A stretch of DNA of 64,000 nucleotides from Bacteroidia bacterium (GTDB taxonomy: Bacteria > Bacteroidota > Bacteroidia > UKL13-3): positions 4,972-68,971 of the forward strand of contig JBAYTR010000015.1 in NCBI GenBank assembly GCA_041675505.1, in the 5' to 3' direction. A program made the position numbers and the translations under genes. Positions within the stretch are counted from its first letter, which is position 1; the number at the start of each line of letters is the position of its first letter. The notes under the pieces were generated by a model. That model was not told the origin of the DNA. It made no database searches and saw nothing but the letters and a program-made list of their open reading frames with translations. Below, piece by piece: positions 3,736-62,811 of this stretch.

Positions 3736-5599
3736 TGCAGCATCCAAACGTGTTACGTTATACATCATATTTGTTACCATAGGTATCATTTTTTTGCTGC
3801 GCCTGTTCTGGTTGCAGGTAGTGGATGAAACCTATGTGCAGTTTGCGCGCAACAACGTGCTCAATGAGGTAGTGGTATATCCCGCCCGTGGATTGGTGTA
3901 CGACCGCAACGGACAACTACTCATTTACAACGATGCCATTTATGATTTAATGGTAGTGCCGGAGCGGTTGAAAGATTTGGACACCAACAGTTTTTGCGAT
4001 GTATTGGGCATTACCAAAGAAGAATTTATTCGCAGGTTCACTAAAATAAAAAACAGCAAAGGTTACTCGCGTTACCGGGCTTCGGTTTTTGAAAAACAAT
4101 TGACCATACCGGTTTATGCTGCCTTTCAGGAAAAGCTATTTGACTTTCCGGGATTTTACGTAGAAACACGTACCGATAGAAAATACGTGTACAACAATGC
4201 CGCACACGTAATGGGTTACATAGGTGAGGTAACCGATAAAATTATTGAACAATCCAGTGGCTATTACCGCATGGGCGACTATTACGGAGTAAGCGGTATA
4301 GAACGCTCGTATGAAGATGTGCTGCGCGGAACACGGGGTATCAAATATGTTTTGGTAGACGTACACAACCGCACGCAGGGCAGGTACAAAGAAGGTTTGT
4401 TTGACACCGCATCTGTTGCAGGATTAAACATCACCACCACGCTTGACCACCAGTTGCAAGAGTACGGAGAAAAACTCATTCAGAATAAACGGGGCAGTGT
4501 GGTGGCTATTGAACCCTCCACAGGAGAAATACTTGCGCTCATCAGTAATCCTACGTATGACCCCAATTTGTTTATTGGTCGTGAACGAGGAAACAATTAC
4601 ATGCGCCTGTTGCGCGACCCGCAAAAACCCTTGTTTAACAGACCCATTGCCGCACCTTATCCACCGGGTTCTATCTTTAAAATTATCATGGCACTTATAG
4701 GCCAGAAGGAAGGGGTGCTCAATGAGAATACAAGTTATTTTTGCGGAGGCGGTTACCGCATGGGAAGCATTAAAGTAGGTTGTCACCCGCACTCTTCTCC
4801 CTTGCCACTTCGCCCGGGTATTGCGGTTTCCTGTAACGCCTATTTTTGTAATGTGTACCGCTCGGTAATTGACAACAAACGTTACCCCAATTCAGAAGCT
4901 GCTTATAGAAAGTGGAGAGAACACGTAATGAGTTTCGGACTCGGACAACGCATGGGCATTGATTTACCCGGAGAAGGCATGGGCAATGTACCATCGCCTG
5001 AGTACTACGATAAAATTTACGGTCGTTACCACTGGAAATCTTCTACAACTATTTCGTTGGGTATAGGGCAGGGAGAGTTGGGTATAACACCTTTACAGAT
5101 GGCCAACGTTACCGCTATATTGGCCAACCGCGGCTATTACATTACCCCGCACATTGTAAAAGCAATTGAAGGAACCAAACTCAACCGACCGGAGTACACC
5201 AAGCGCCACTACACTACGGTTGATACCGGCTACTACGGTATTATAGTAGATGCCATGCAGGATGTGGTAGAACGAGGTACTGCACGTGTAGCCATGATGA
5301 AAGACATTATAGTGTGCGGAAAAACAGGTACCGCACAAAACCCGCACGGCAAAGACCACTCGGTATTTTTTGCATTTGCCCCGCGTGATAATCCTAAAAT
5401 TGCCATAGCTGTAGTAGTGGAGAATGCAGGGTTCGGAGCCACGTGGGCAGCCCCTATTGCGAGCCTGATGATAGAAAAATATTTAACGGATACCATCACA
5501 CGTGCATGGCTCGAAGAGCGTATGGTGAAAGCCGATTTGATTCACCCCAAACCAGTAACCGATGAAGCAGGAAAGTCAGCTGCAAAGCCAGCACATTGA
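3728..5599 (+). CDS. mrdA: Penicillin-binding protein 2 (peptidoglycan D,D-transpeptidase).
   Basis: Contains the SIFK (SxxK), SCN (SxN) and KTGTA active-site motifs, plus an N-terminal TM anchor. Confidence 0.95.
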   Translation: MIDAASKRVTLYIIFVTIGIIFLLRLFWLQVVDETYVQFARNNVLNEVVVYPARGLVYDRNGQLLIYNDAIYDLMVVPERLKDLDTNSFCDVLGITKEEFIRRFTKIKNSKGYSRYRASVFEKQLTIPVYAAFQEKLFDFPGFYVETRTDRKYVYNNAAHVMGYIGEVTDKIIEQSSGYYRMGDYYGVSGIERSYEDVLRGTRGIKYVLVDVHNRTQGRYKEGLFDTASVAGLNITTTLDHQLQEYGEKLIQNKRGSVVAIEPSTGEILALISNPTYDPNLFIGRERGNNYMRLLRDPQKPLFNRPIAAPYPPGSIFKIIMALIGQKEGVLNENTSYFCGGGYRMGSIKVGCHPHSSPLPLRPGIAVSCNAYFCNVYRSVIDNKRYPNSEAAYRKWREHVMSFGLGQRMGIDLPGEGMGNVPSPEYYDKIYGRYHWKSSTTISLGIGQGELGITPLQMANVTAILANRGYYITPHIVKAIEGTKLNRPEYTKRHYTTVDTGYYGIIVDAMQDVVERGTARVAMMKDIIVCGKTGTAQNPHGKDHSVFFAFAPRDNPKIAIAVVVENAGFGATWAAPIASLMIEKYLTDTITRAWLEERMVKADLIHPKPVTDEAGKSAAKPAH

Positions 5600-54673: not shown

Positions 54674-56197
54674 ATGAGCGAGACTAAAAAAATTACCAAC
54701 GCCTTAATTTCAGTTTTCTATAAAGATGGTTTAGAGCCTGTTGTGAAAGAGTTGCACCGTTTGGGTGTTACAATTTATTCTACCGGAGGAACACAGGAGT
54801 TTATAGAGAAGTTGGGTATTCCGGTAATTGCCGTAGAGTCTCTTACAGGATATCCTTCTATTTTGGGCGGAAGAGTAAAAACATTGCACCCTAAAGTTTT
54901 TGGTGGTATTCTGGCCCGAAGAGAAAATGCTTCTGATATTTCAGAGGCTGCTCAGTTTGAAATTCCAATGCTTGATTTGGTGATTGTTGATTTATATCCG
55001 TTTGAGGAGACAGTAAAGTCAACCACAGATGAAAGCGCTATCATTGAGAAAATTGACATTGGCGGAGTATCACTCATTCGTGCCACTGCAAAAAATCACC
55101 GCGACACCATTATTGTTGCGCACAAAAATGACTACGCATTTTTGCTCAACCTGCTGCAAACTAAAAACGGCAGTAGCATGGATGACAGGAGAGAATTGGC
55201 CCGCAGAGCATTTAACGTTACGTCACACTACGATACACATATTTTCAACTACTTTAACGGAAACCGCACCGACAGTTTTAAAGAAAGCATACTCACGGGT
55301 ACTACTTTGCGGTACGGTGAAAACCCGCACCAGAAAGGAGTTTTTTACGGAGATTTAAGTGAAGTGTTTGACCAGCTGCACGGCAAAGAGTTGTCGTACA
55401 ACAACCTGGTTGATGCGGAAGCGGCACTACAGCTTTCGGCTGAATTCACCCAACCCGCCTTTGCCATTATCAAACATACCAACCCCTGTGGTGTAGCAGA
55501 GCGCGATACCTTGTTGCAAGCCTGGAATGATGCATTAGCCGGTGATCCGGTTTCAGCATTTGGCGGTGTGATTGCCTCTAATCGGGTTATTGATGAGGCC
55601 ACCGCAAAGGCAATGGACAGCCTATTTTTTGAACTACTCATTGCCCCGGGTTATGATGCCGCAGCTTTAGAAATACTGAAATCAAAAAAGAACCGCGTTT
55701 TGCTGGTACAGAAAAAAACTGATTTTGGTAAGATGCAGTTTAAATCCTTGCTTAACGGTGTGCTGGCACAGGACAAAGACAGCATGCAGGAAAAAGCAGG
55801 TGATTTAGTTTGTAAGACCCAAACACAACCTACCTCATCAGCACAGGTTGACGATTTGCTCTTTGCCGCTAAGCTGGTGAAGAATGCAAAATCCAACACC
55901 ATTGTACTGGCCAAAAACAATCAGTTAATCGGCATAGGTTGCGGACATACTTCCCGAATTGACGCATTACACCATGCTATAAAAAAAGCGGCTGAATTCG
56001 GGTTTGATTTGAACGGTGCTGTAATGGCTTCGGATGCGTTTTTCCCTTTCCCTGATTGTGTGGAAGTAGCGCATAAGGCAGGGATTAAAGCAGTGATTCA
56101 ACCCGGTGGTTCTATCAAAGATCAGTTGAGTATTGATTACTGCAATGCACACGGTTTAGCTATGGTATTCACCGGCATTCGTCATTTCAAACACTAA
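54674..56197 (+). CDS. purH: Bifunctional AICAR transformylase / IMP cyclohydrolase.
   Basis: N-terminal MGS-like domain (ALISVFYKDG..) and a C-terminal AICARFT domain. Full-length PurH similarity. Confidence 0.9.
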   Translation: MSETKKITNALISVFYKDGLEPVVKELHRLGVTIYSTGGTQEFIEKLGIPVIAVESLTGYPSILGGRVKTLHPKVFGGILARRENASDISEAAQFEIPMLDLVIVDLYPFEETVKSTTDESAIIEKIDIGGVSLIRATAKNHRDTIIVAHKNDYAFLLNLLQTKNGSSMDDRRELARRAFNVTSHYDTHIFNYFNGNRTDSFKESILTGTTLRYGENPHQKGVFYGDLSEVFDQLHGKELSYNNLVDAEAALQLSAEFTQPAFAIIKHTNPCGVAERDTLLQAWNDALAGDPVSAFGGVIASNRVIDEATAKAMDSLFFELLIAPGYDAAALEILKSKKNRVLLVQKKTDFGKMQFKSLLNGVLAQDKDSMQEKAGDLVCKTQTQPTSSAQVDDLLFAAKLVKNAKSNTIVLAKNNQLIGIGCGHTSRIDALHHAIKKAAEFGFDLNGAVMASDAFFPFPDCVEVAHKAGIKAVIQPGGSIKDQLSIDYCNAHGLAMVFTGIRHFKH

Positions 56198-56204
56198 TTC
56201 ATAG

Positions 56205-56498
56205 TTAAGAATTATCTGTATTCAGATAACTTTTTAGTGCTTTCACATAGTTCTCAAAAGCAGTTATGCCTTTGGGTGTTATTTTACATGTAGTAAGCGG
56301 ATACTTCCCTTTAAATCCTTTTGTTACTTCAATGTAGCCGGCCTGTTGCAGTTTTTCAATCTGCACACTCAGGTTGCCTGCTGTGGCCGCAGTTTTTTCT
56401 TTAAGGTAGCCAAACTCAGCCTCTTTAACAGCAATGAGTAGTGATACAATGGCCAGCCTGAGTTGCGAGTGAAGAAGCGGATCGAGGTCTTTAAACAT
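56205..56498 (-). CDS. Winged-helix transcriptional regulator (97 aa).
   Basis: Small basic protein with a helix-turn-helix core (..TAATAGNLSVQIEKLQQAGYIEV..). It has an 8-bp overlap with the upstream membrane-protein gene. Confidence 0.55.
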   Translation of the reverse strand: MFKDLDPLLHSQLRLAIVSLLIAVKEAEFGYLKEKTAATAGNLSVQIEKLQQAGYIEVTKGFKGKYPLTTCKITPKGITAFENYVKALKSYLNTDNS

Positions 56499-57120
56499 GC
56501 TTGGCTAGTCTGTTATTTAATAAATGGCCGGGAATAATGAAGCCTCCCATAACCCCGATGGCAATGAGTAACAGATGTACTTCTGTACCCCTTCCCAATG
56601 CCTGTGCTATAAACGACTCTGGTAATTGTTTGGCTATTTCGGGATAGATAAAACCAATCAGCGCACAAGTCCAGTTGAGTATTCCACCCCATTTCAAGGG
56701 CTTGAATTTTAATAACCCGCCAGATACAAATAACCAAATCGCATACACCACCATAATGGTGGGATAGAAAGCTTTCCATTGCGCTCCTACAGGCATTGCA
56801 AAACAGATTACAAACATGGAAATACTGAATGCTTTTATCACCTCGTTCATGCTTTCTGATACATACGTTTTTACCTCTACTTCTTTTTTCTTTTCACGCA
56901 TGCCGTATATCATGGTTACTATACCGCCCAATGGCATCAGTATCATCCAGGGTAATCCGTGTATTTCAAATGTTGTAAAACCAATGATATATAAATCGGC
57001 AAGCGCAGCAATAAATACCAACCAGCCCCAGAAATAATAATAAAAACCGTTGTCTCTTATTTCTTCTTTTGTTTTGCTGATCATTTCTTCAATCAGCAGG
57101 ATAGCGTCTTTTTCATTCAT
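56491..57120 (-). CDS. Hypothetical polytopic membrane protein.
   Basis: Five to six hydrophobic helices. Co-transcribed with the small wHTH regulator. Confidence 0.5.
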   Translation of the reverse strand: MNEKDAILLIEEMISKTKEEIRDNGFYYYFWGWLVFIAALADLYIIGFTTFEIHGLPWMILMPLGGIVTMIYGMREKKKEVEVKTYVSESMNEVIKAFSISMFVICFAMPVGAQWKAFYPTIMVVYAIWLFVSGGLLKFKPLKWGGILNWTCALIGFIYPEIAKQLPESFIAQALGRGTEVHLLLIAIGVMGGFIIPGHLLNNRLAKHV

Positions 57121-57173
57121 AACATTAAAAGTTTTGCAACGGATTTTGCTTTAGACAAAATCCGTTGCAGGTT

Positions 57174-58088
57174 TTATTTCTTAATTACAATTCTGTGTTT
57201 TGTGGTACTTTTATCTGCATGGTGAAGCACTACAATATACACACCTTCTTTTAATCCTTCACAGTCAACATTTATTTCTGATGTTTCTGCTTTTACACTT
57301 TTCACTACTTCTGCCTTCACATTGTATAGCTCTATCAGGTCCACCGTTTTTTCAGCATAAATGTTAAAACTTTCTTTTGCAGGGTTAGGGTAGATCTTAA
57401 TTAGTTGTGCTGCATTTATGTGTTTTACTGAGGTGTGTTGGTAACTGAAGCTGATGTCGTCCAGGTATAGTTTACTTCCTACTACGGGGTCAAAACCGTT
57501 TATGCTGGAGGAGAATAATACAGCTAAAGAATCAGGAGTGTAATTGCTGCGGTAGTTAATAGTTACTTCTGCCTGCACATATTGACTGATGGTTTGATGG
57601 TTTTCCCAGTCAGCATAGCCTACAGTATCTCTTTGTAAAGTTGTAGTGTTCCATCGGGTCAGGAGTAAGGTCATGGCGTTTGTGTCTCCGGTCATGGGGT
57701 TGGCTTTGAAGAAAAATTTCAACGACACCGGCCGCGAACTGAACGGGATAAGGTTACGCTCCATTACTGGTTCCCATTGTTCAGTCAGAATAAGGTTGGT
57801 GGTCAATAAACCGGGAGTGTTGGACATGGTACCCGATTTGGTTTCGAGCAATACTGCTGATGTGCCGCTGTGAGCATCTCCAGTTTTAAGTGTGGTTTGC
57901 GGGTAACTGACCAGTGACAGTATGTTCAGCGAGAACCAACCCTGCGGCTCCTGGAAGGTGATGCCGTTACTTGTTTTCTGTAGCCAGTTTTCCAGTCCAC
58001 CATTGATGGGTTGTTCCTGCGCTTGTGCACCCAGCCACAACCCGGTTGTGACCATTAGTGCGAATAATTTTGTACGTTTATTAGACAT
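57174..58088 (-). CDS. Secreted hypothetical protein with a T9SS C-terminal sorting domain.
   Basis: Signal peptide (..GAQAQ). The C-terminus (..KIYPNPAKESFNIY...GVYIVVL..) matches the type A T9SS CTD. Confidence 0.7.
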   Translation of the reverse strand: MSNKRTKLFALMVTTGLWLGAQAQEQPINGGLENWLQKTSNGITFQEPQGWFSLNILSLVSYPQTTLKTGDAHSGTSAVLLETKSGTMSNTPGLLTTNLILTEQWEPVMERNLIPFSSRPVSLKFFFKANPMTGDTNAMTLLLTRWNTTTLQRDTVGYADWENHQTISQYVQAEVTINYRSNYTPDSLAVLFSSSINGFDPVVGSKLYLDDISFSYQHTSVKHINAAQLIKIYPNPAKESFNIYAEKTVDLIELYNVKAEVVKSVKAETSEINVDCEGLKEGVYIVVLHHADKSTTKHRIVIKK

Positions 58089-58231
58089 GGATTTGAAACA
58101 TTTGATTTGCGATACAAATGTAAAGTAGTTTATATTATAAACTGAAATTTATTTTCAAAGTTTAGTATTAAAGTACTGAAAATAAGTCTGATAAATGGTA
58201 ATTATATACTTGACAGACCCATAATTGAGGG

Positions 58232-58771
58232 TCAGAACTTTACACCGTAAGCGGCAAGTTCTCTTCTTATGTCCTTAATTACCCCAAAATACACACCTTG
58301 AATTTTAAGCAGGTCTTTGGGTTTTATGGTTAGCAGGTCGGCAACGGTTTCAAACTTTAGGAACTTCATAACCTTCATGGTGCGTACGGTTATGTCTAAG
58401 TCCTCTAACCGTAGTTTTAAAACAGATTGTAGGTGTTCAGATGGTTCAGGCTTTTTGTGGAGTTTAGCAAGTTGCTGGGTTAGGTTATAGTTTACCTCTT
58501 TAAGTGTTTCATAGTGTTTATATTTCTCAAAGAAGTACTCTATTGAGGATATTATGTGCATTAAAGAGGTCTTGTATATCTGTTCTACGCGCTGTGTCGT
58601 TATTCCTATGTCTTTCGCTACTGCATCGTATGTATGTCTGAATAATAGTATCCGTTTTAAAACTTCACCGTTACGCTCGTCAATATTGAACAGGTTCAAA
58701 CGCTCATCAAGAGTAATGAGGTTCATTAAAAGGACTTGGTCAGACTTATGTAGGAATTTCAGGTCAGTCAC
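58232..58771 (-). CDS. Transposon cargo: putative transcription factor with a sigma-70 region-4-like HTH and an RNA polymerase alpha-subunit CTD-like domain. The annotated start codon is GTG.
   Basis: Residues ~35-75 (EVLKRILLFRHTYDAVAKDIGITTQRVEQIYKTSLMHI) match the sigma-70 r4 / LuxR-type HTH. Residues ~115-179 (LRLEDLDITVRTMKVMKFLKFETVADLLTIKPKDLLKIQGVYFGVIKDIRRELAAYGV) match the RpoA alpha-CTD helix-hairpin-helix pattern. Confidence 0.55.
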   Translation of the reverse strand: MTDLKFLHKSDQVLLMNLITLDERLNLFNIDERNGEVLKRILLFRHTYDAVAKDIGITTQRVEQIYKTSLMHIISSIEYFFEKYKHYETLKEVNYNLTQQLAKLHKKPEPSEHLQSVLKLRLEDLDITVRTMKVMKFLKFETVADLLTIKPKDLLKIQGVYFGVIKDIRRELAAYGVKF

Positions 58772-58772
58772 A

Positions 58773-58910
58773 TTAGTGCTTTTTTAGTGGCATGGGTTTA
58801 ACCCTTACAATGCGTTGTATTACCTCTCCAAAGCTGGGTTTTTGCTCTTGCTCTGTATCGGGTTTCTTTTTTTCGCCTGACTTGGGTTTTGGAACTATTT
58901 TTTTTGACAT
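58773..58910 (-). CDS. Possible 45-aa Lys-rich micro-protein (MSKKIVPKPKSGEKKKPDTEQEQKPSFGEVIQRIVRVKPMPLKKH) immediately upstream of the HTH cargo gene.
   Basis: An ATG-initiated ORF ends 1 nt before the GTG start of the next gene. It is below the ORF-track length cutoff and rests on a manual translation only. Confidence 0.25.
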   Translation of the reverse strand: MSKKIVPKPKSGEKKKPDTEQEQKPSFGEVIQRIVRVKPMPLKKH

Positions 58911-58960
58911 AATACAAAGTTACCGAAAGTTTATATATTGCCGTTCTAAATTATATCCCA

Positions 58961-59473
58961 GTGAAAACATTCTGCATAAATTCATCTATTGAAATAGAGG
59001 TAAGTTATAATACTAAATCCAAAACAAGAGCAAGATTATATGAACACATTACAGAGTATCTAAAAGATGTTAGCCGTTACCTACATGGTAGGCCAGAGTC
59101 TTCTTCGGTGTCAACAGACACTGTTTTACATTTTGTTAAAAGTCAAATATCAAACCTCAATTCGCAAATACAGGAATTTGATGGTATTGAAAATATTGCA
59201 CAAGCAGACCTAAACAGAAAGGTCAAAAACTGTAAGATAAATAAAGACTCTTTAAGTATAGAATCAAACCTGATTGATATATTTGACTTCAGGCTTAATC
59301 ACCAAACTAATATAATAATAAACTACGAATCCGTTGTTTACGCAGTAGAGTCAGAAGACGTTGATAAAAGCGGAAATACATTATTAGTTTGTTATCAGAA
59401 AAAAGAGCCATTTGAAAGTAGAATACAAATACCTAAAAACTCGAACGTCCCCTATCATTTGCGTTCAATGTAG
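58961..59473 (+). CDS. Transposon cargo: hypothetical protein (170 aa).
   Basis: A long ORF in a 33% GC region, which is unlikely to arise by chance in AT-rich DNA. No motif was recognised. Confidence 0.4.
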   Translation: MKTFCINSSIEIEVSYNTKSKTRARLYEHITEYLKDVSRYLHGRPESSSVSTDTVLHFVKSQISNLNSQIQEFDGIENIAQADLNRKVKNCKINKDSLSIESNLIDIFDFRLNHQTNIIINYESVVYAVESEDVDKSGNTLLVCYQKKEPFESRIQIPKNSNVPYHLRSM

Positions 59474-59753
59474 TGTCGAAATCTCCATTAACTAAACAAC
59501 CTGTAAAGTATTCAATCATTGAGTCAACAATGTATGTGGCGAACTTAACGTCAAACTTCTCCCAATTTACGACAGCATAAGCCAACTCAAAAGGGGGTTG
59601 TTGTTGAAAGTCTATTGAACACGCTTTTAAATTACCCGAATTTTTTAACCTTCGTAAGTAGTCTATTATTATGACAGTCCTTTTTATATTAGACAATTCC
59701 CCATTTGGGGAATAGATTGTATCCAATTCTGATTCTTCTACGGTGGTATTCAT
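59433..59753 (-). CDS. Transposon cargo: hypothetical protein (106 aa).
   Basis: An ORF in AT-rich DNA that overlaps the 58961..59473 ORF by 41 bp on the opposite strand. One of the two may be spurious. Confidence 0.3.
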   Translation of the reverse strand: MNTTVEESELDTIYSPNGELSNIKRTVIIIDYLRRLKNSGNLKACSIDFQQQPPFELAYAVVNWEKFDVKFATYIVDSMIEYFTGCLVNGDFDTTLNANDRGRSSF

Positions 59754-59891
59754 ATTTATACTTATTAATCCAAACTCTTATATATGCAAATATAAACATA
59801 TATTCATATTTATCAAAACAAACAAAACACATTAATTCAATCTTAAAATAAACCTGTATGATGTTCTACTGAGTCAACCCAAAAATAGACT

Positions 59892-60885
59892 TTATTTCCC
59901 TTGCTTTCCTATCAGAGTTATATACTCCAAATTCCCTACATTCGACTGTAACAGGAGTAAATCAAACCTGTCACTTTCACTCATTTTCCTGTTATTGAAC
60001 CTGTAAGCGAACTCCTCCAAATAACGCTGTAAGTGCTTCTTACTTGTGAAGTGATAAATACCCAAAATCCCCCGTTTTAATAGCGACCAAAAGTTTTCAA
60101 TTGTGTTCGTGTATATCCCCGACTACATATTGTTTGGCTGCGTGTTTAATGGTATCGTGCGAAAACCCTGACTTGCCTAAATCTTGATATGCGTACCATT
60201 CATCAGAAACCACCCTTGCAAACTCTTTTACGTTCTGAATGATTATAGGCTGTAATGTGTTCTTTTTGGTGTTATCAACGTGCTTTGCAATAACGTTTCC
60301 TTTGCGCTCAATCATTCCAAAGACCGCTTTAGGCTCTTCACCTACCTTGTTGCTCTTATAGCCCCCTAATCCGTTCTTACCGCCTCTTTTGCTCTTGTGC
60401 TTATTCTTTTCCTTGCCCTGTAAGAATGTTTCATCAACTTCTACAATGTTCTCCAAAGGTTTTTTATAGTCTTCGTTCTCCATGCCGAACCTTAAACGGT
60501 GCAACATGAACCATGCACTTTTTTGAGTAACCTTTATATCTTTTGCCAATTGCATTGAACTTATGCCTTTTGAGTGTGATGTAAACAGGTAGATAGCAGG
60601 AAACCACTTAACCAACGGTATTTTGCTGTCCTGAAATATTGTACCAACCCGAACCGTGAACTTTTTACGGCACGCACCACACTTGTAATAAATACCGTCT
60701 GAGAATGCGTAAACATTATTGTCATTATTGCAATGTGGGCAAACAGGCTTGTCACCCCAACGCTTTGCAGCTATATACCGTGAGCACTTCTCCTCTGTGT
60801 TGAACGTGGTTATTAAGTCAATCAGATTCGTGAACTTTTCTATACTTTCCATGTCTTCCATGTCGTTTGTATTTCTCGGGTACAA
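59892..60885 (-). pseudogene. IS1595-family transposase interrupted by a frameshift near 60100.
   Basis: The N-terminal 262 aa have the IS1595 zinc-ribbon region (CPHCNNDNNVYAFSDGIYYKCGACRKKF..IFQDSKIPLVKWFPAIYL..SKGISSMQLAKDIKVTQKSAWFMLHRLR) and DDE core (..VEVDETFLQGKEKN..) and end at ..VVGDIHEHN*. The conserved C-terminus (YTNTIENFWSLLKRGILGIYHFTSKKHLQRYLEEFAYRFNNRK..) continues downstream in another frame, down to the stop at 59892. Confidence 0.8.
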
Positions 60886-60935
60886 ACTTACAACATTTAT
60901 TTGGGTCTGTCAAGTATATAGTTACCTGATAAATT

Positions 60936-61544
60936 TTATGGAATGAACCGTTCGCTGGTTTTGTGCTTGCCGGTGAGGTCGTGCCCGCTGATGTCGAGGT
61001 ACTCGATATTGGGTACCCAAAAGGAGCCCCCTACAATGTGAACATAAACCCGGTCGAGCTGACTCAACCTCCCGTTGATGTAAGTGTACACATGGTATTT
61101 ATGGTCGTGTTCTGAACGGATAAGGTAAAGATTTTTTTTGCGGTAACTCACAAACGTAAGCAGGTACGATTGTTTTTCGGCATTTACCAGCGTAGCATTT
61201 AAACCGTAAGCATACTTTTTCTGAATGATGGTAAGGTCTTCCTTCTGGTTTTGTTCGGCATAACACTGCCAGTATATTTTCACCGGCATTTGAGGGTTTG
61301 GTTTTCCATCAGGCCGCAGGTTTACTTCGTACATAATGGTATTGGTATTTACACTGCGCTGTATGTAAAACAACTGGTGCTCAAATCGGGGAACAGGAAA
61401 AGAATCAGGAACAGTTTTTACACTTTTTTGTACGGGAGAAACAAGGTGAGTAGCCGGTTCTTTAACCAACCACCACACAGACATTGCAGACATGGTCCCG
61501 ATACTGAAAATAAGTGTACGAAAAAAAATCATGAAAGGCTGCAA
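60936..61544 (-). CDS. Hypothetical protein with an N-terminal TM/signal segment.
   Basis: N-terminal hydrophobic segment (..LIFSIGTMSAMSVWWLV). Its stop codon lies 1 bp from the transposon TSD. Confidence 0.5.
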   Translation of the reverse strand: MQPFMIFFRTLIFSIGTMSAMSVWWLVKEPATHLVSPVQKSVKTVPDSFPVPRFEHQLFYIQRSVNTNTIMYEVNLRPDGKPNPQMPVKIYWQCYAEQNQKEDLTIIQKKYAYGLNATLVNAEKQSYLLTFVSYRKKNLYLIRSEHDHKYHVYTYINGRLSQLDRVYVHIVGGSFWVPNIEYLDISGHDLTGKHKTSERFIP

Positions 61545-61599
61545 ATTTAAGATTATGCTTTTACAAAGTACTCATAAAATTTGCAAGGGCCATAAAGCA

Positions 61600-61628
61600 A
61601 GAAACCCCGCATAAAGCGGGGTTCTTGT
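61600..61628 (-). terminator. Terminator-like hairpin downstream of the acyl-CoA dehydrogenase gene, with stem AACCCCGC / GCGGGGTT.
   Basis: A perfect 8-bp GC-rich stem with a 5-nt loop, followed on the minus strand by a moderately U-rich tract. Confidence 0.5.
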
Positions 61629-61671
61629 GCAAATCAAATGTTCAAATCCTTTTTAGGGGATGTCTTAATTC

Positions 61672-62811
61672 TTACCGGAGTATCTCGCGGGAGATAACTA
61701 TTTTTTGTACTTCAGAAGTACCCTCGTAAATCTGGGTGATTTTGGCATCACGCATCAAACGCTCCACGTGGTACTCTTTAACGTAACCGTAACCACCGTG
61801 AACTTGCACGGCTTCTGTAGTTACGTTCATAGCAGTGGTAGAGGCAAACAACTTAGCCATAGAACTGGCCAGGGCATATTCTTTATGTTCGTCTTTTAAC
61901 CAGGCCGCTTTTAAGCACAACAAACGAGCTGCTTCAATCTCGGTAGCCATATCAGCTAATTTGAATTGAATTGCCTGGTGGTTTTTGATTTCAGTACCAA
62001 AAGCTTTACGCTCTTTAGAATATTTTACGGCCAGTTCATAAGCACCGCTGGCTATACCTAAAGCCTGAGAGGCAATGCCTATTCGGCCACCTGCCAGTGT
62101 TTTCATGGCAAAAGTGAATCCGAATCCGTCTTCACCAATGCGGTTTTCTTTAGGCACCTTCACATCCTGAAACATGATGGAGTGTGTATCGCTGGCGCGA
62201 ATACCCATTTTTTGTTCTTTTTTACCAACGGTAACACCGGGCCAGTTTTTCTCTACAATAAAGGCGTTAATACCTTTGTGTTTTTTATCGGGATGCGTTT
62301 GTGCAATTACCAGATACGTATCGGCAGTATTGCCACAGGTAATCCAATTTTTGGTTCCGTTGAGCAGGTAGTAATCACCCTTGTCTTCAGCAGTGGTGCG
62401 TTGTGAGGTTGCATCAGAACCGGCTTCGGGTTCTGAAAGCAAGAATGCTCCGTGAACCTTTCCGCTGGCCAATGGCACTAAATATTTCATCTTTTGCTCT
62501 TCATTGGCAAAGGTTTCTAAGCCCCAGCATACTAAAGAGTTGTTAACGGATATAACTACTGAAGTGGATGCATCCACTTTTGAAATTTCTTCCATCACCA
62601 ATACATACGATACCGTGTCCATGCCTGCACCGCCATACTTCGGATCAACCATCATTCCCATAAAGCCCATTTCGCCCAGTTTGCGAATTTGTTCCATTGG
62701 GAAAATCTGCTCCTCATCGCGCTCAATCACACCCGGCAGTAACTCAGTTTGTGCAAAGTCTCTGGCGGCTTGTTGAACCATTAATTGTTCTTCGGTTAGT
62801 TCTATGTTCAT
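61672..62811 (-). CDS. Acyl-CoA dehydrogenase (short/medium-chain type).
   Basis: Full-length ACAD pattern, including the ..YLLNGTKNWITC.. FAD/substrate region and a C-terminal ..VQVHGGYGYVKEY..ERLMRDAKITQIYEGTS catalytic Glu region. Confidence 0.9.
   Translation of the reverse strand: MNIELTEEQLMVQQAARDFAQTELLPGVIERDEEQIFPMEQIRKLGEMGFMGMMVDPKYGGAGMDTVSYVLVMEEISKVDASTSVVISVNNSLVCWGLETFANEEQKMKYLVPLASGKVHGAFLLSEPEAGSDATSQRTTAEDKGDYYLLNGTKNWITCGNTADTYLVIAQTHPDKKHKGINAFIVEKNWPGVTVGKKEQKMGIRASDTHSIMFQDVKVPKENRIGEDGFGFTFAMKTLAGGRIGIASQALGIASGAYELAVKYSKERKAFGTEIKNHQAIQFKLADMATEIEAARLLCLKAAWLKDEHKEYALASSMAKLFASTTAMNVTTEAVQVHGGYGYVKEYHVERLMRDAKITQIYEGTSEVQKIVISREILR

Follow-up and report, generated by a model that had tools for sequence, protein, structure and literature searches.

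A micro-protein gene and a sigma region-4/alpha-CTD gene as a recurrent end module of passenger-carrying IS1595-family transposons

The subject of this study is a pair of adjoining genes in a 64,000-nucleotide stretch of DNA from a Bacteroidia bacterium (GenBank assembly GCA_041675505.1, contig JBAYTR010000015.1, forward-strand positions 4,972 to 68,971), which we call the window and whose own numbering is used throughout. The pair occupies positions 58232-58910 on the minus strand, inside a transposon of the IS1595 family of insertion sequences (IS). It encodes a lysine-rich micro-protein of 45 amino acids followed by a protein of 179 amino acids that joins two modules known from RNA polymerase: a helix-turn-helix (HTH) like that of sigma-70 region 4, and a domain like the C-terminal domain of the alpha subunit (alpha-CTD). 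The same two genes recur at the same end of related, independently inserted elements. Tentatively, we read them as an optional accessory module whose larger product would be a DNA-binding regulator of its element. Such an end module, consisting of two conserved genes, one of them from an uncharacterised protein family, on a passenger-bearing IS1595 element, is previously undescribed. The features of the pair, including its open reading frames (ORFs), are the following.

58232-58771, minus strand: gene for the sigma-region-4/long helix/alpha-CTD protein, GTG start at 58769-58771, 179 amino acids
58547-58693, minus strand: sigma-70 region-4-like HTH (residues ~27-75), sub-threshold for Pfam Sigma70_r4 in this protein, with family-level matches
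58457-58546, minus strand: long linker helix (residues ~76-105) in the AlphaFold model, unbroken from the recognition helix of the HTH
58247-58441, minus strand: alpha-CTD-like domain (residues ~111-175), from Pfam and Foldseek
58773-58910, minus strand: gene for the 45-residue Lys-rich micro-protein, TAA stop at 58773-58775, homologues in related elements
58915-58922, minus strand: TAACTTTG, a match to TAnnTTTG, with 4 nt between it and the ATG of the micro-ORF; putative promoter box

Both domains of the larger protein were recognised from sequence families and from predicted structure. The Pfam family RNA_pol_A_CTD (PF03118) is matched over residues 111-160 at 31.6 bits, above its gathering score of 23.8, and Sigma70_r4 (PF04545) over residues 31-72 at 17.1 bits, below its gathering score of 24.1; a match to KORA is likewise sub-threshold (16.9 bits against 26.7). 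The NCBIfam equivalog models for rpoA are matched in their C-terminal parts only, at 16-36 bits against cut-offs of 228-523, and nearly all phmmer matches in the PDB are RpoA chains (best E-value 1.9e-5). AlphaFold2 run on the single sequence gave a poor model, with a predicted local distance difference test score (pLDDT) of 49, which was superseded by a model built with an alignment of 37 homologues (alignment A1, see below) and reaching a mean pLDDT of 93.7. In this model a small helical N-terminal domain ends in a helix that continues without interruption over residues 59-105, and residues 112-173 form a compact C-terminal domain. Foldseek superposes the latter on isolated alpha-CTD chains of the PDB at 0.9-1.2 Å and target-normalised TM-scores of 0.88-0.90 (1z3e_B with a root-mean-square deviation of 1.2 Å, 9dvt_A with 0.9 Å, and also 7vpd_S).

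A preliminary description of this DNA had proposed a 179-residue frame with a GTG start, a Lys-rich 45-residue frame ending 1 nt before it, and the fusion of a sigma-70 region-4-like HTH with an alpha-CTD-like domain, and had named a structural comparison of the C-terminal region with RpoA as a check. The coordinates and both frames are correct, the modelled C-terminal region does have the alpha-CTD fold, and Pfam, the family profile and Foldseek together bear out the domain composition, with region 4 sub-threshold in the single protein.

Neither Pfam nor NCBIfam finds the alpha N-terminal domains of dimerisation and assembly (PF01000, PF01193) in the 179-residue protein, which therefore cannot assemble into polymerase; an RpoA paralogue is rejected on this ground. 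A sigma factor is rejected as well, since the same libraries give no match to Sigma70_r2, the region of core binding and -10 recognition, and only about 25 residues precede the HTH. The ORF is a real gene and not a chance frame. NCBI deposited it as a protein of 164 amino acids starting at M16 (MFA7381499.1, labelled 'alpha C-terminal domain-containing protein'); another source already gives 179 amino acids (P0123). Because the first 15 residues (58727-58771) are conserved in the relatives P0002 and P0004, the GTG start is favoured, and to judge by this comparison the 164-residue call is probably too short.

The transposon that carries the pair is 2,730 bp long (58197-60926) and is delimited as follows.

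58189-58196, no strand: target-site duplication, left copy, TGATAAAT, the identical 8-mer found beyond both inverted repeats
60927-60934, no strand: target-site duplication, right copy, TGATAAAT, a perfect match to the left copy
58197-58221, plus strand: transposase-distal terminal inverted repeat, GGTAATTATATACTTGACAGACCCA, 25 nt, 96% complementary to 60902-60926
60902-60926, minus strand: transposase-proximal terminal inverted repeat, one mismatch to its partner
60097-60852, minus strand: N-terminal part of the IS1595 transposase (Zn-ribbon and DDE), cut short by a stop codon that follows a -2 frameshift
59892-60116, minus strand: C-terminal part of the IS1595 transposase in another frame, located by tblastn with the transposase of the sister element L006 and by Pfam/NCBIfam

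The repeat pattern matches twice in the window against 0 expected and never in shuffled sequence, and the identical 8 bp outside each repeat are the signature of a real insertion. The transposase is recognised by Pfam as DDE_Tnp_IS1595 (80 bits, cut-off 27, 2.4e-22) and Zn_ribbon_IS1595 (47.4 bits, cut-off 25.4, 1.8e-12), and by NCBIfam as transpos_IS1595 (144.5 bits, cut-off 75, 4e-42). With the intact 315-residue transposase of L006 as query, tblastn aligns residues 1-247 in frame -2 at 68% identity and residues 246-314 in frame -3 at 71%. The frame switches near 60105, where a CACAC run is apparently two bases short and GDIH continues as TNTIENFW in the other frame. This copy could be dead, dependent on a transposase acting in trans, or mis-assembled: the source being a metagenome-assembled genome (MAG), the frameshift could stem from faulty assembly as well as from a real mutation. 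G+C content is 0.30-0.36 inside the element versus 0.41-0.48 in its flanks. Repeats, duplication and transposase establish the pair as transposon cargo, as the preliminary description had it.

Three independently inserted elements (that of the window, L006 and L129), each bounded by its own 8-bp duplication, share a common order: transposase, unrelated cargo, micro-ORF, sigma4/alpha-CTD gene and distal repeat. Their sigma4/alpha-CTD proteins are 29-38% identical, and their terminal repeats are nearly unchanged. The closest relative, P0002 (38% identity, 183 amino acids), is encoded on three contigs (L006-L008). Its locus comprises an intact IS1595 transposase gene, three genes on the opposite strand, a 51-residue ORF that overlaps the start of the 183-residue gene (ATGA), that gene itself and the repeat; the repeats of L006 are 1-2 bases off those of the window, and its 8-bp duplication is AATTATTT. 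P0004 (about 30% identity, 159 amino acids) belongs to L129, where the duplication is TATTTATC and the order is RadC, DUF2158, a 53-residue gene, the IS1595 transposase, two genes, a 41-residue ORF overlapping the start of the 159-residue gene, that gene and the repeat. In the window as in the sister elements the pair is the last unit before the distal repeat, and its end lies 10-16 nt from that repeat. The other cargo of the window, L006 and L129 elements was compared and shows no mutual similarity. On the 2.4-kb contig of L130 a terminal repeat, a micro-ORF and the protein P0083 follow each other (887-1633), with the repeat about 50 nt upstream of the micro-ORF. No transposase lies between repeat and pair, and the locus may be either a rearranged element or a cassette that has no transposase. 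L077 has kept the transposase and the micro-ORF and has lost the downstream gene.

The micro-protein gene holds 11 Lys in its 45 residues, and a single base (58772) separates its TAA from the GTG downstream. L006, L129 and L130 each have a homologue immediately before the sigma4/alpha-CTD gene, and a vestige is left in L077. Among five micro-proteins of related elements the motif E..xRIVRV..P.KK is invariant within a Lys-rich context (alignment A4). The RIVRV codons differ synonymously from element to element, so that conservation is at the level of amino acids and not of DNA. This points to selection on the peptide and makes the micro-ORF a real gene; that it is a chance ORF is rejected on the same evidence. 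In the related elements the micro-proteins measure 41-59 amino acids, and their reading frames run up to or into the start of the next gene. Since the GTG start fixes the stop/start abutment, translational coupling of the two genes is likely, as far as gene arrangement can tell, and the conservation of both peptide and arrangement supports the coupled expression that the 1-nt spacing had suggested earlier. The micro-protein has no match in PADLOC-DB and no recognisable antitoxin fold.

How widely the terminal repeats occur was assessed by an exact scan for their core, which gave at least 118 metagenome stretches and 49 stretches of species-representative genomes. The core is spread over many phyla, with carriers in Mesorhizobium, Saccharibacteria, Chloroflexota, Planctomycetota and Bacteroidota; it also occurs in the MAG of a Methanomassiliicoccales archaeon, and the terminal repeat contains a perfect TTGACA. 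At many loci an IS1595 transposase lies 30-50 bp from the repeat, and several have paired repeats 2.4-5.6 kb apart. The gene pair is present at none of the 49 genome loci, and its sole carrier among the 118 metagenome stretches is the L007 contig again. L025, L071, L076 and L123 are cargo-bearing elements with paired repeats and without the pair. A search of genomes for related loci with the L006 transposase gave no confirmed match. The cargo of sister elements includes a D12 adenine methyltransferase with a PD-(D/E)XK nuclease (PDDEXK_11; L025 8020-10735, L076 7318-10440), a TIGR04255 protein (L071 126-3110, likewise in L006), a PIN-like protein (L123 1301-4080), and a Replic_Relax-like gene with a gene of 1,029 amino acids (L031 4128-9770). 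The IS group defined by this repeat core seems to be a shuttle for defence- or selfish-type cassettes.

The larger protein belongs to a wider family. An HMMER scan of 1.84 billion cluster representatives returned 103 clusters (50% identity) at E<=1e-3, and roughly two-thirds of them, as counted from the table, align over both domains, typically over query residues ~18-177 in proteins of 160-290 amino acids. Word-indexed searches of a collection of 5.8 billion proteins recovered only the 179-residue protein itself, its cluster being one contig, when it was the sole query, and few matches, mainly true RpoA, with alignment A1. This alignment holds 37 of the cluster members, matched by RNA_pol_A_CTD (37/37), Sigma70_r4 (34/37) and HHH_5 (2/37). 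Its profile finds the RpoA alpha-CTD in the PDB at 3e-25, the top matches being all RpoA, and region 4 of SigA, RpoD and RpoH at 5e-11 to 5e-9, with SigA and RpoD at 5e-11 to 3e-9. The 179-residue protein conforms to the family layout, with a colinear full-length match, a region-4 HTH, a long helix and an alpha-CTD. No Pfam or NCBIfam model spans the two domains, and our literature search found no paper on this architecture, on PF03118 outside RpoA, on TIGR04255 or on MzaA. The architecture had been put forward as unusual. It corresponds to no common, characterised family of regulators, the whole group being uncharacterised, but with roughly 100 related clusters it is not unique, which softens the claim.

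Relatives outside transposons occur without the micro-ORF. P0106, P0105 and P0064 are encoded directly after a fused HTH_3/Peptidase_M78 (ImmA-like) gene and head long same-strand runs of small unknown genes, near genes of restriction or abortive-infection type. Loci with the ImmA-like gene are L001 (6975-8552), L003 (829-2457), L009 (376-1979) and L005 (1290-2750); L001, L003 and L009 have the look of control regions of integrated mobile elements, and L005 has two alpha-CTD-containing genes in tandem. Members of 270-290 amino acids carry an extra N-terminal HTH_17/MerR-like domain, and one of these sits among Fic, DprA and helicase genes. Where the context of a member is readable, it looks like a mobile element or a variable accessory region. 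Two longer proteins have repeated modules: P0006 (736 amino acids) shows four separate matches to the query and, by eye, a long run of tandem alpha-CTD-like repeats, and P0007 (433 amino acids) has eight match stretches in a tandem array of sigma-region-4-like HTH repeats. Using tblastn, no relative of the 179-residue protein was found in 50,697 phage or 72,556 plasmid records, and a search of viral contigs for related loci with P0106 and the 179-residue protein found none. PADLOC-DB yielded only a 14-bit partial match to an alpha-CTD-like segment of PglW, and PHROGs nothing meaningful.

To compare contact residues, the E. coli alpha-CTD and sigma-70 region 4 were added to alignment A1, RpoA residues being numbered as in the K-12 sequence; in both, the known motifs fall where they are expected. 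The DNA-contact set of the alpha-CTD is kept across the family (R265 in 35/38, N268 in 31/38, G296 in 37/38, K298 in 23/38, S/T299 in 29/38), and so is the acidic pair D259/E261, in E. coli the surface of alpha that touches sigma region 4. Equivalents of the region 4.2 contacts E585, R586, R588 and Q589 are present in the majority of the 38 family members. This conservation in both domains argues for DNA binding by both across the family. The transposon subclade has diverged, having K or R at position 268 and no K298. The 179-residue protein retains D124 and D126 at the places of the acidic pair and, of the '265 determinant' (R265, N268, G296, K298, S299), only R265 (its R130). Its recognition helix reads T59 Q60 R61 V62 E63 Q64, versus R-E-R-I-R-Q. 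The linker helix has significant heptad periodicity in 16/37 members, with about 2 expected by chance, and weak matches to KorA, a plasmid repressor that is dimeric, occur in several members (4/37 at E<=0.01).

The tentative reading introduced above can now be set out in full. The pair would be an optional module with a regulatory product because its layout recurs in three independent elements despite the low identity of the proteins. The 179-residue protein would be a free-standing regulator made from two polymerase-derived modules, the sigma region-4 HTH and the helix-hairpin-helix of the alpha-CTD; DNA binding is suggested because the family keeps the DNA-contact residues of both parent domains, and a role in regulation because other members stand in seemingly regulatory positions of mobile elements. 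The long joining helix probably dimerises, at least in many relatives. A short transcript of its own would carry the coupled basic micro-protein, a probable partner of the larger protein; a separate transcription unit is proposed because a TAnnTTTG-like box lies directly before the micro-ORF both in the window and in L006, where it reads TATCTTTG. The regulator would act on DNA of its own element, at the promoters of cargo or transposase or at the terminal repeats, and would thereby control the expression or the movement of the element.

TAnnTTTG is the -7 promoter consensus of Bacteroidota. With 73 matches in the window versus 75 expected, the motif shows no enrichment, so that the promoter call is positional and suggestive only. 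Comparison of upstream k-mers gave AT-rich words of the 'ATATAA' type and the TAnnTTTG box only; scans for sigma-70-type promoters and for terminators showed no excess over shuffles, and Rfam reports no RNA family at 56000-62000. A search for 7-8-mers that recur in non-coding DNA in each of the three complete elements yielded only the 7-mer ACAGACC of the terminal-repeat core, and the inverted and direct repeats within the window element are short and unconvincing as operators. The look for conserved operator-like repeats that the preliminary description had proposed thus gave nothing common to the elements apart from the terminal repeats.

Several observations weigh against the proposed regulator. 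The pair is absent from more than 160 loci with the repeat core and hence dispensable for transposition. The search for a binding site ended with nothing beyond the shared terminal-repeat core, and the literature searched holds no experiment on any member of the family. The transposase is frameshifted, and the element is possibly decaying. In the protein itself, N268 is replaced by K133, G296 by Y161, K298 by G163 and S299 by V164, and binding of DNA by its C-terminal domain is doubtful because most of the residues that contact DNA in the alpha-CTD are replaced. R584, E585 and R588, which read the -35 element, are replaced by T59, Q60 and E63, so that three contacts of region 4.2 are gone. Finally, the heptad periodicity of its linker helix is not significant (p=0.22).

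Among other explanations, the protein could serve as a transposition-control factor at the terminal repeats, repressing transcription of the transposase or modulating synapsis or target choice, by analogy with InsA. We regard this as unlikely. In its favour, the pair is always last before the distal repeat and travels with the repeat and transposase lineage while the cargo is swapped; the terminal-repeat core is the sole non-coding motif conserved in the three elements; in L130 a repeat lies just upstream of the micro-ORF; and the repeat contains TTGACA, which is the -35 consensus of sigma-70 and the hexamer read by region 4. However, the residues that would read TTGACA are those replaced in the recognition helix, and elements such as L025, L071, L076 and L123 transpose without the pair, which none of the 49 genome loci has. 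InsA of IS1, a related IS family, is a small transposon-encoded DNA-binding repressor of terminal repeats. The likeness would be one of function only: fold and gene position differ, and most elements that have the repeat core lack the module.

We consider it improbable that the protein is a mimic of RNA polymerase, the decoy or adaptor suggested in the preliminary description, presenting copies of sigma region 4 and alpha-CTD to host activators, to the beta-flap or to phage take-over factors. Host transcription would then be re-routed, or the protein would be a bait sensing phage proteins directed at polymerase, with the micro-protein as partner or trigger. That both domains are specifically polymerase-derived (all A1 members match RNA_pol_A_CTD, two HHH_5) and not a generic HTH and helix-hairpin-helix would fit such a role. 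So would the decay of the second DNA-binding hairpin in the transposon subclade while the acidic pair D124/D126 is kept, the defence-type cargo of sister transposons (restriction-modification, PIN-like, TIGR04255), and the alpha-CTD-like segments in the model of PglW, the kinase of bacteriophage exclusion (BREX). Against it, the weak partial PglW match is the only one to a defence family in PADLOC-DB, the family-wide conservation of DNA contacts points to DNA binding as the ancestral job, the pair has no effector domain, and its cargo neighbours in the different elements are unrelated. A narrower form, slightly less probable again, has the protein imitate the polymerase face that reads the -35 and UP elements and work through protein contacts, not as an ordinary repressor. 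It would be either a guard bait for factors that seize sigma region 4 or modify the alpha-CTD, or an adaptor redirecting transcription at the insertion site.

There is also a small chance that the window copy is a decaying passenger and functionless at present. The frameshift in the transposase, the Tyr that this member alone has in place of G296 (Gly in 37/38), and a protein cluster confined to a single contig among 5.8 billion proteins would agree with decay. Both ORFs are intact, however, the invariant motif of the micro-protein is kept, the (near-)perfect repeats and duplication indicate a recent insertion, and the frameshift is possibly an assembly error of the MAG. Least probable is an addiction or toxin-antitoxin-like cassette, in which the larger protein would bind DNA or polymerase and inhibit growth and the basic micro-protein would counteract it, with the effect of stabilising the element or aborting phage infection. 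The compactness and coupling of the pair, the small size of its first gene, its place on a mobile element, and the selfish or defence cargo in sister elements recall such systems, but no toxin-antitoxin or defence model in PADLOC-DB matches, many relatives outside transposons lack the micro-ORF, and the micro-protein has no recognisable antitoxin fold.

The optional-regulator reading can be placed beside known systems. KorA/TrfB proteins are stand-alone regulators with a region-4-like HTH, and for KORA the 179-residue protein is sub-threshold. With the RpoA alpha-CTD it shares fold and sequence family, and the wider family keeps R265/N268/G296/K298/S299; it differs from RpoA in having no alpha N-terminal domain and, of these residues, only R265. 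The family HTH carries the region 4.2 signature of sigma-70, and its profile matches structures of SigA, RpoD and RpoH; unlike a sigma factor, the 179-residue protein has no region 2, has lost R584/E585/R588, and matches region 4 below threshold on its own. Phages likewise encode free alpha-CTD-like domains on mobile DNA, annotated in BFVD as 'RNA polymerase, alpha subunit, C-terminal' (for example A0A6J5MNY7, and A0A2P1JY10 of Rhodococcus phage Finch), but their full-length match is weak (E about 1e-2) and most measure 110-140 amino acids.

The element itself belongs with the passenger-carrying 'transporter' IS (tIS) of the IS1595 family, an established category as summarised in PMC3129680, which cites Siguier, Gagnevin & Chandler 2009. 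In the terms of that summary, the window element resembles tIS in its Zn-ribbon and ISXO2-like DDE transposase, short terminal inverted repeats, 8-bp duplication and passengers between the repeats; it differs in its frameshifted transposase, which leaves no intact, autonomous frame. In the literature searched, ISfinder aside, there was no description of a conserved micro-protein and sigma4/alpha-CTD end module in tIS.

The remaining cargo of the window element is variable and consists of two orphan frames.

58961-59473, plus strand: ORF of 170 amino acids, divergent from the micro-ORF, 'hypothetical protein' P0124
59433-59753, minus strand: ORF of 106 amino acids, putatively coding, without family match or homologue in sister elements

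The two converge with a 41-nt overlap and take up the central part of the element, where G+C is 30-34%. The 170-residue ORF matches only itself among 5.8 billion proteins, has no family match in Pfam, NCBIfam, PHROGs or PADLOC, and resembles none of the cargo in sister elements. For the 106-residue ORF, the family searches were those of Pfam and NCBIfam.

Outside the repeats, the transposon is flanked by a PCMD/type-IX-secretion-tail gene and a DUF4833 gene (57174-58122 and 60927-61544). The stop codon of the DUF4833 gene lies 2 nt from the right duplication. The genes of the pair and the transposase point toward the PCMD/type-IX-secretion-tail gene, whose own TAnnTTTG box (58115-58122) is intact about 75 bp past the end of the element; read-through from the element could alter its expression. 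Close by, two small ORFs share 8 nt: one of 97 residues (56205-56498) and, upstream of it, one of 209 amino acids (56491-57120), whose 3' end lies in the overlap and whose product is hydrophobic and probably a membrane protein.

The promoters and the sigma factor of Bacteroidota are atypical. A regulatory role of the module in its transposon, if confirmed, would make it the first accessory regulator described for the IS1595 family and a clear case in which mobile DNA has re-used the promoter-recognition parts of polymerase as a free-standing factor. The conserved, coupled micro-protein of 41-59 amino acids stands for a class of genes that annotation pipelines can miss. Should mimicry of the polymerase surface prove true instead, the pair would offer a new handle on the interface between mobile elements, or defence, and the transcription machinery of Bacteroidota. 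About 100 clusters share the architecture and none has a studied member, so that a single characterised protein would annotate the whole family.

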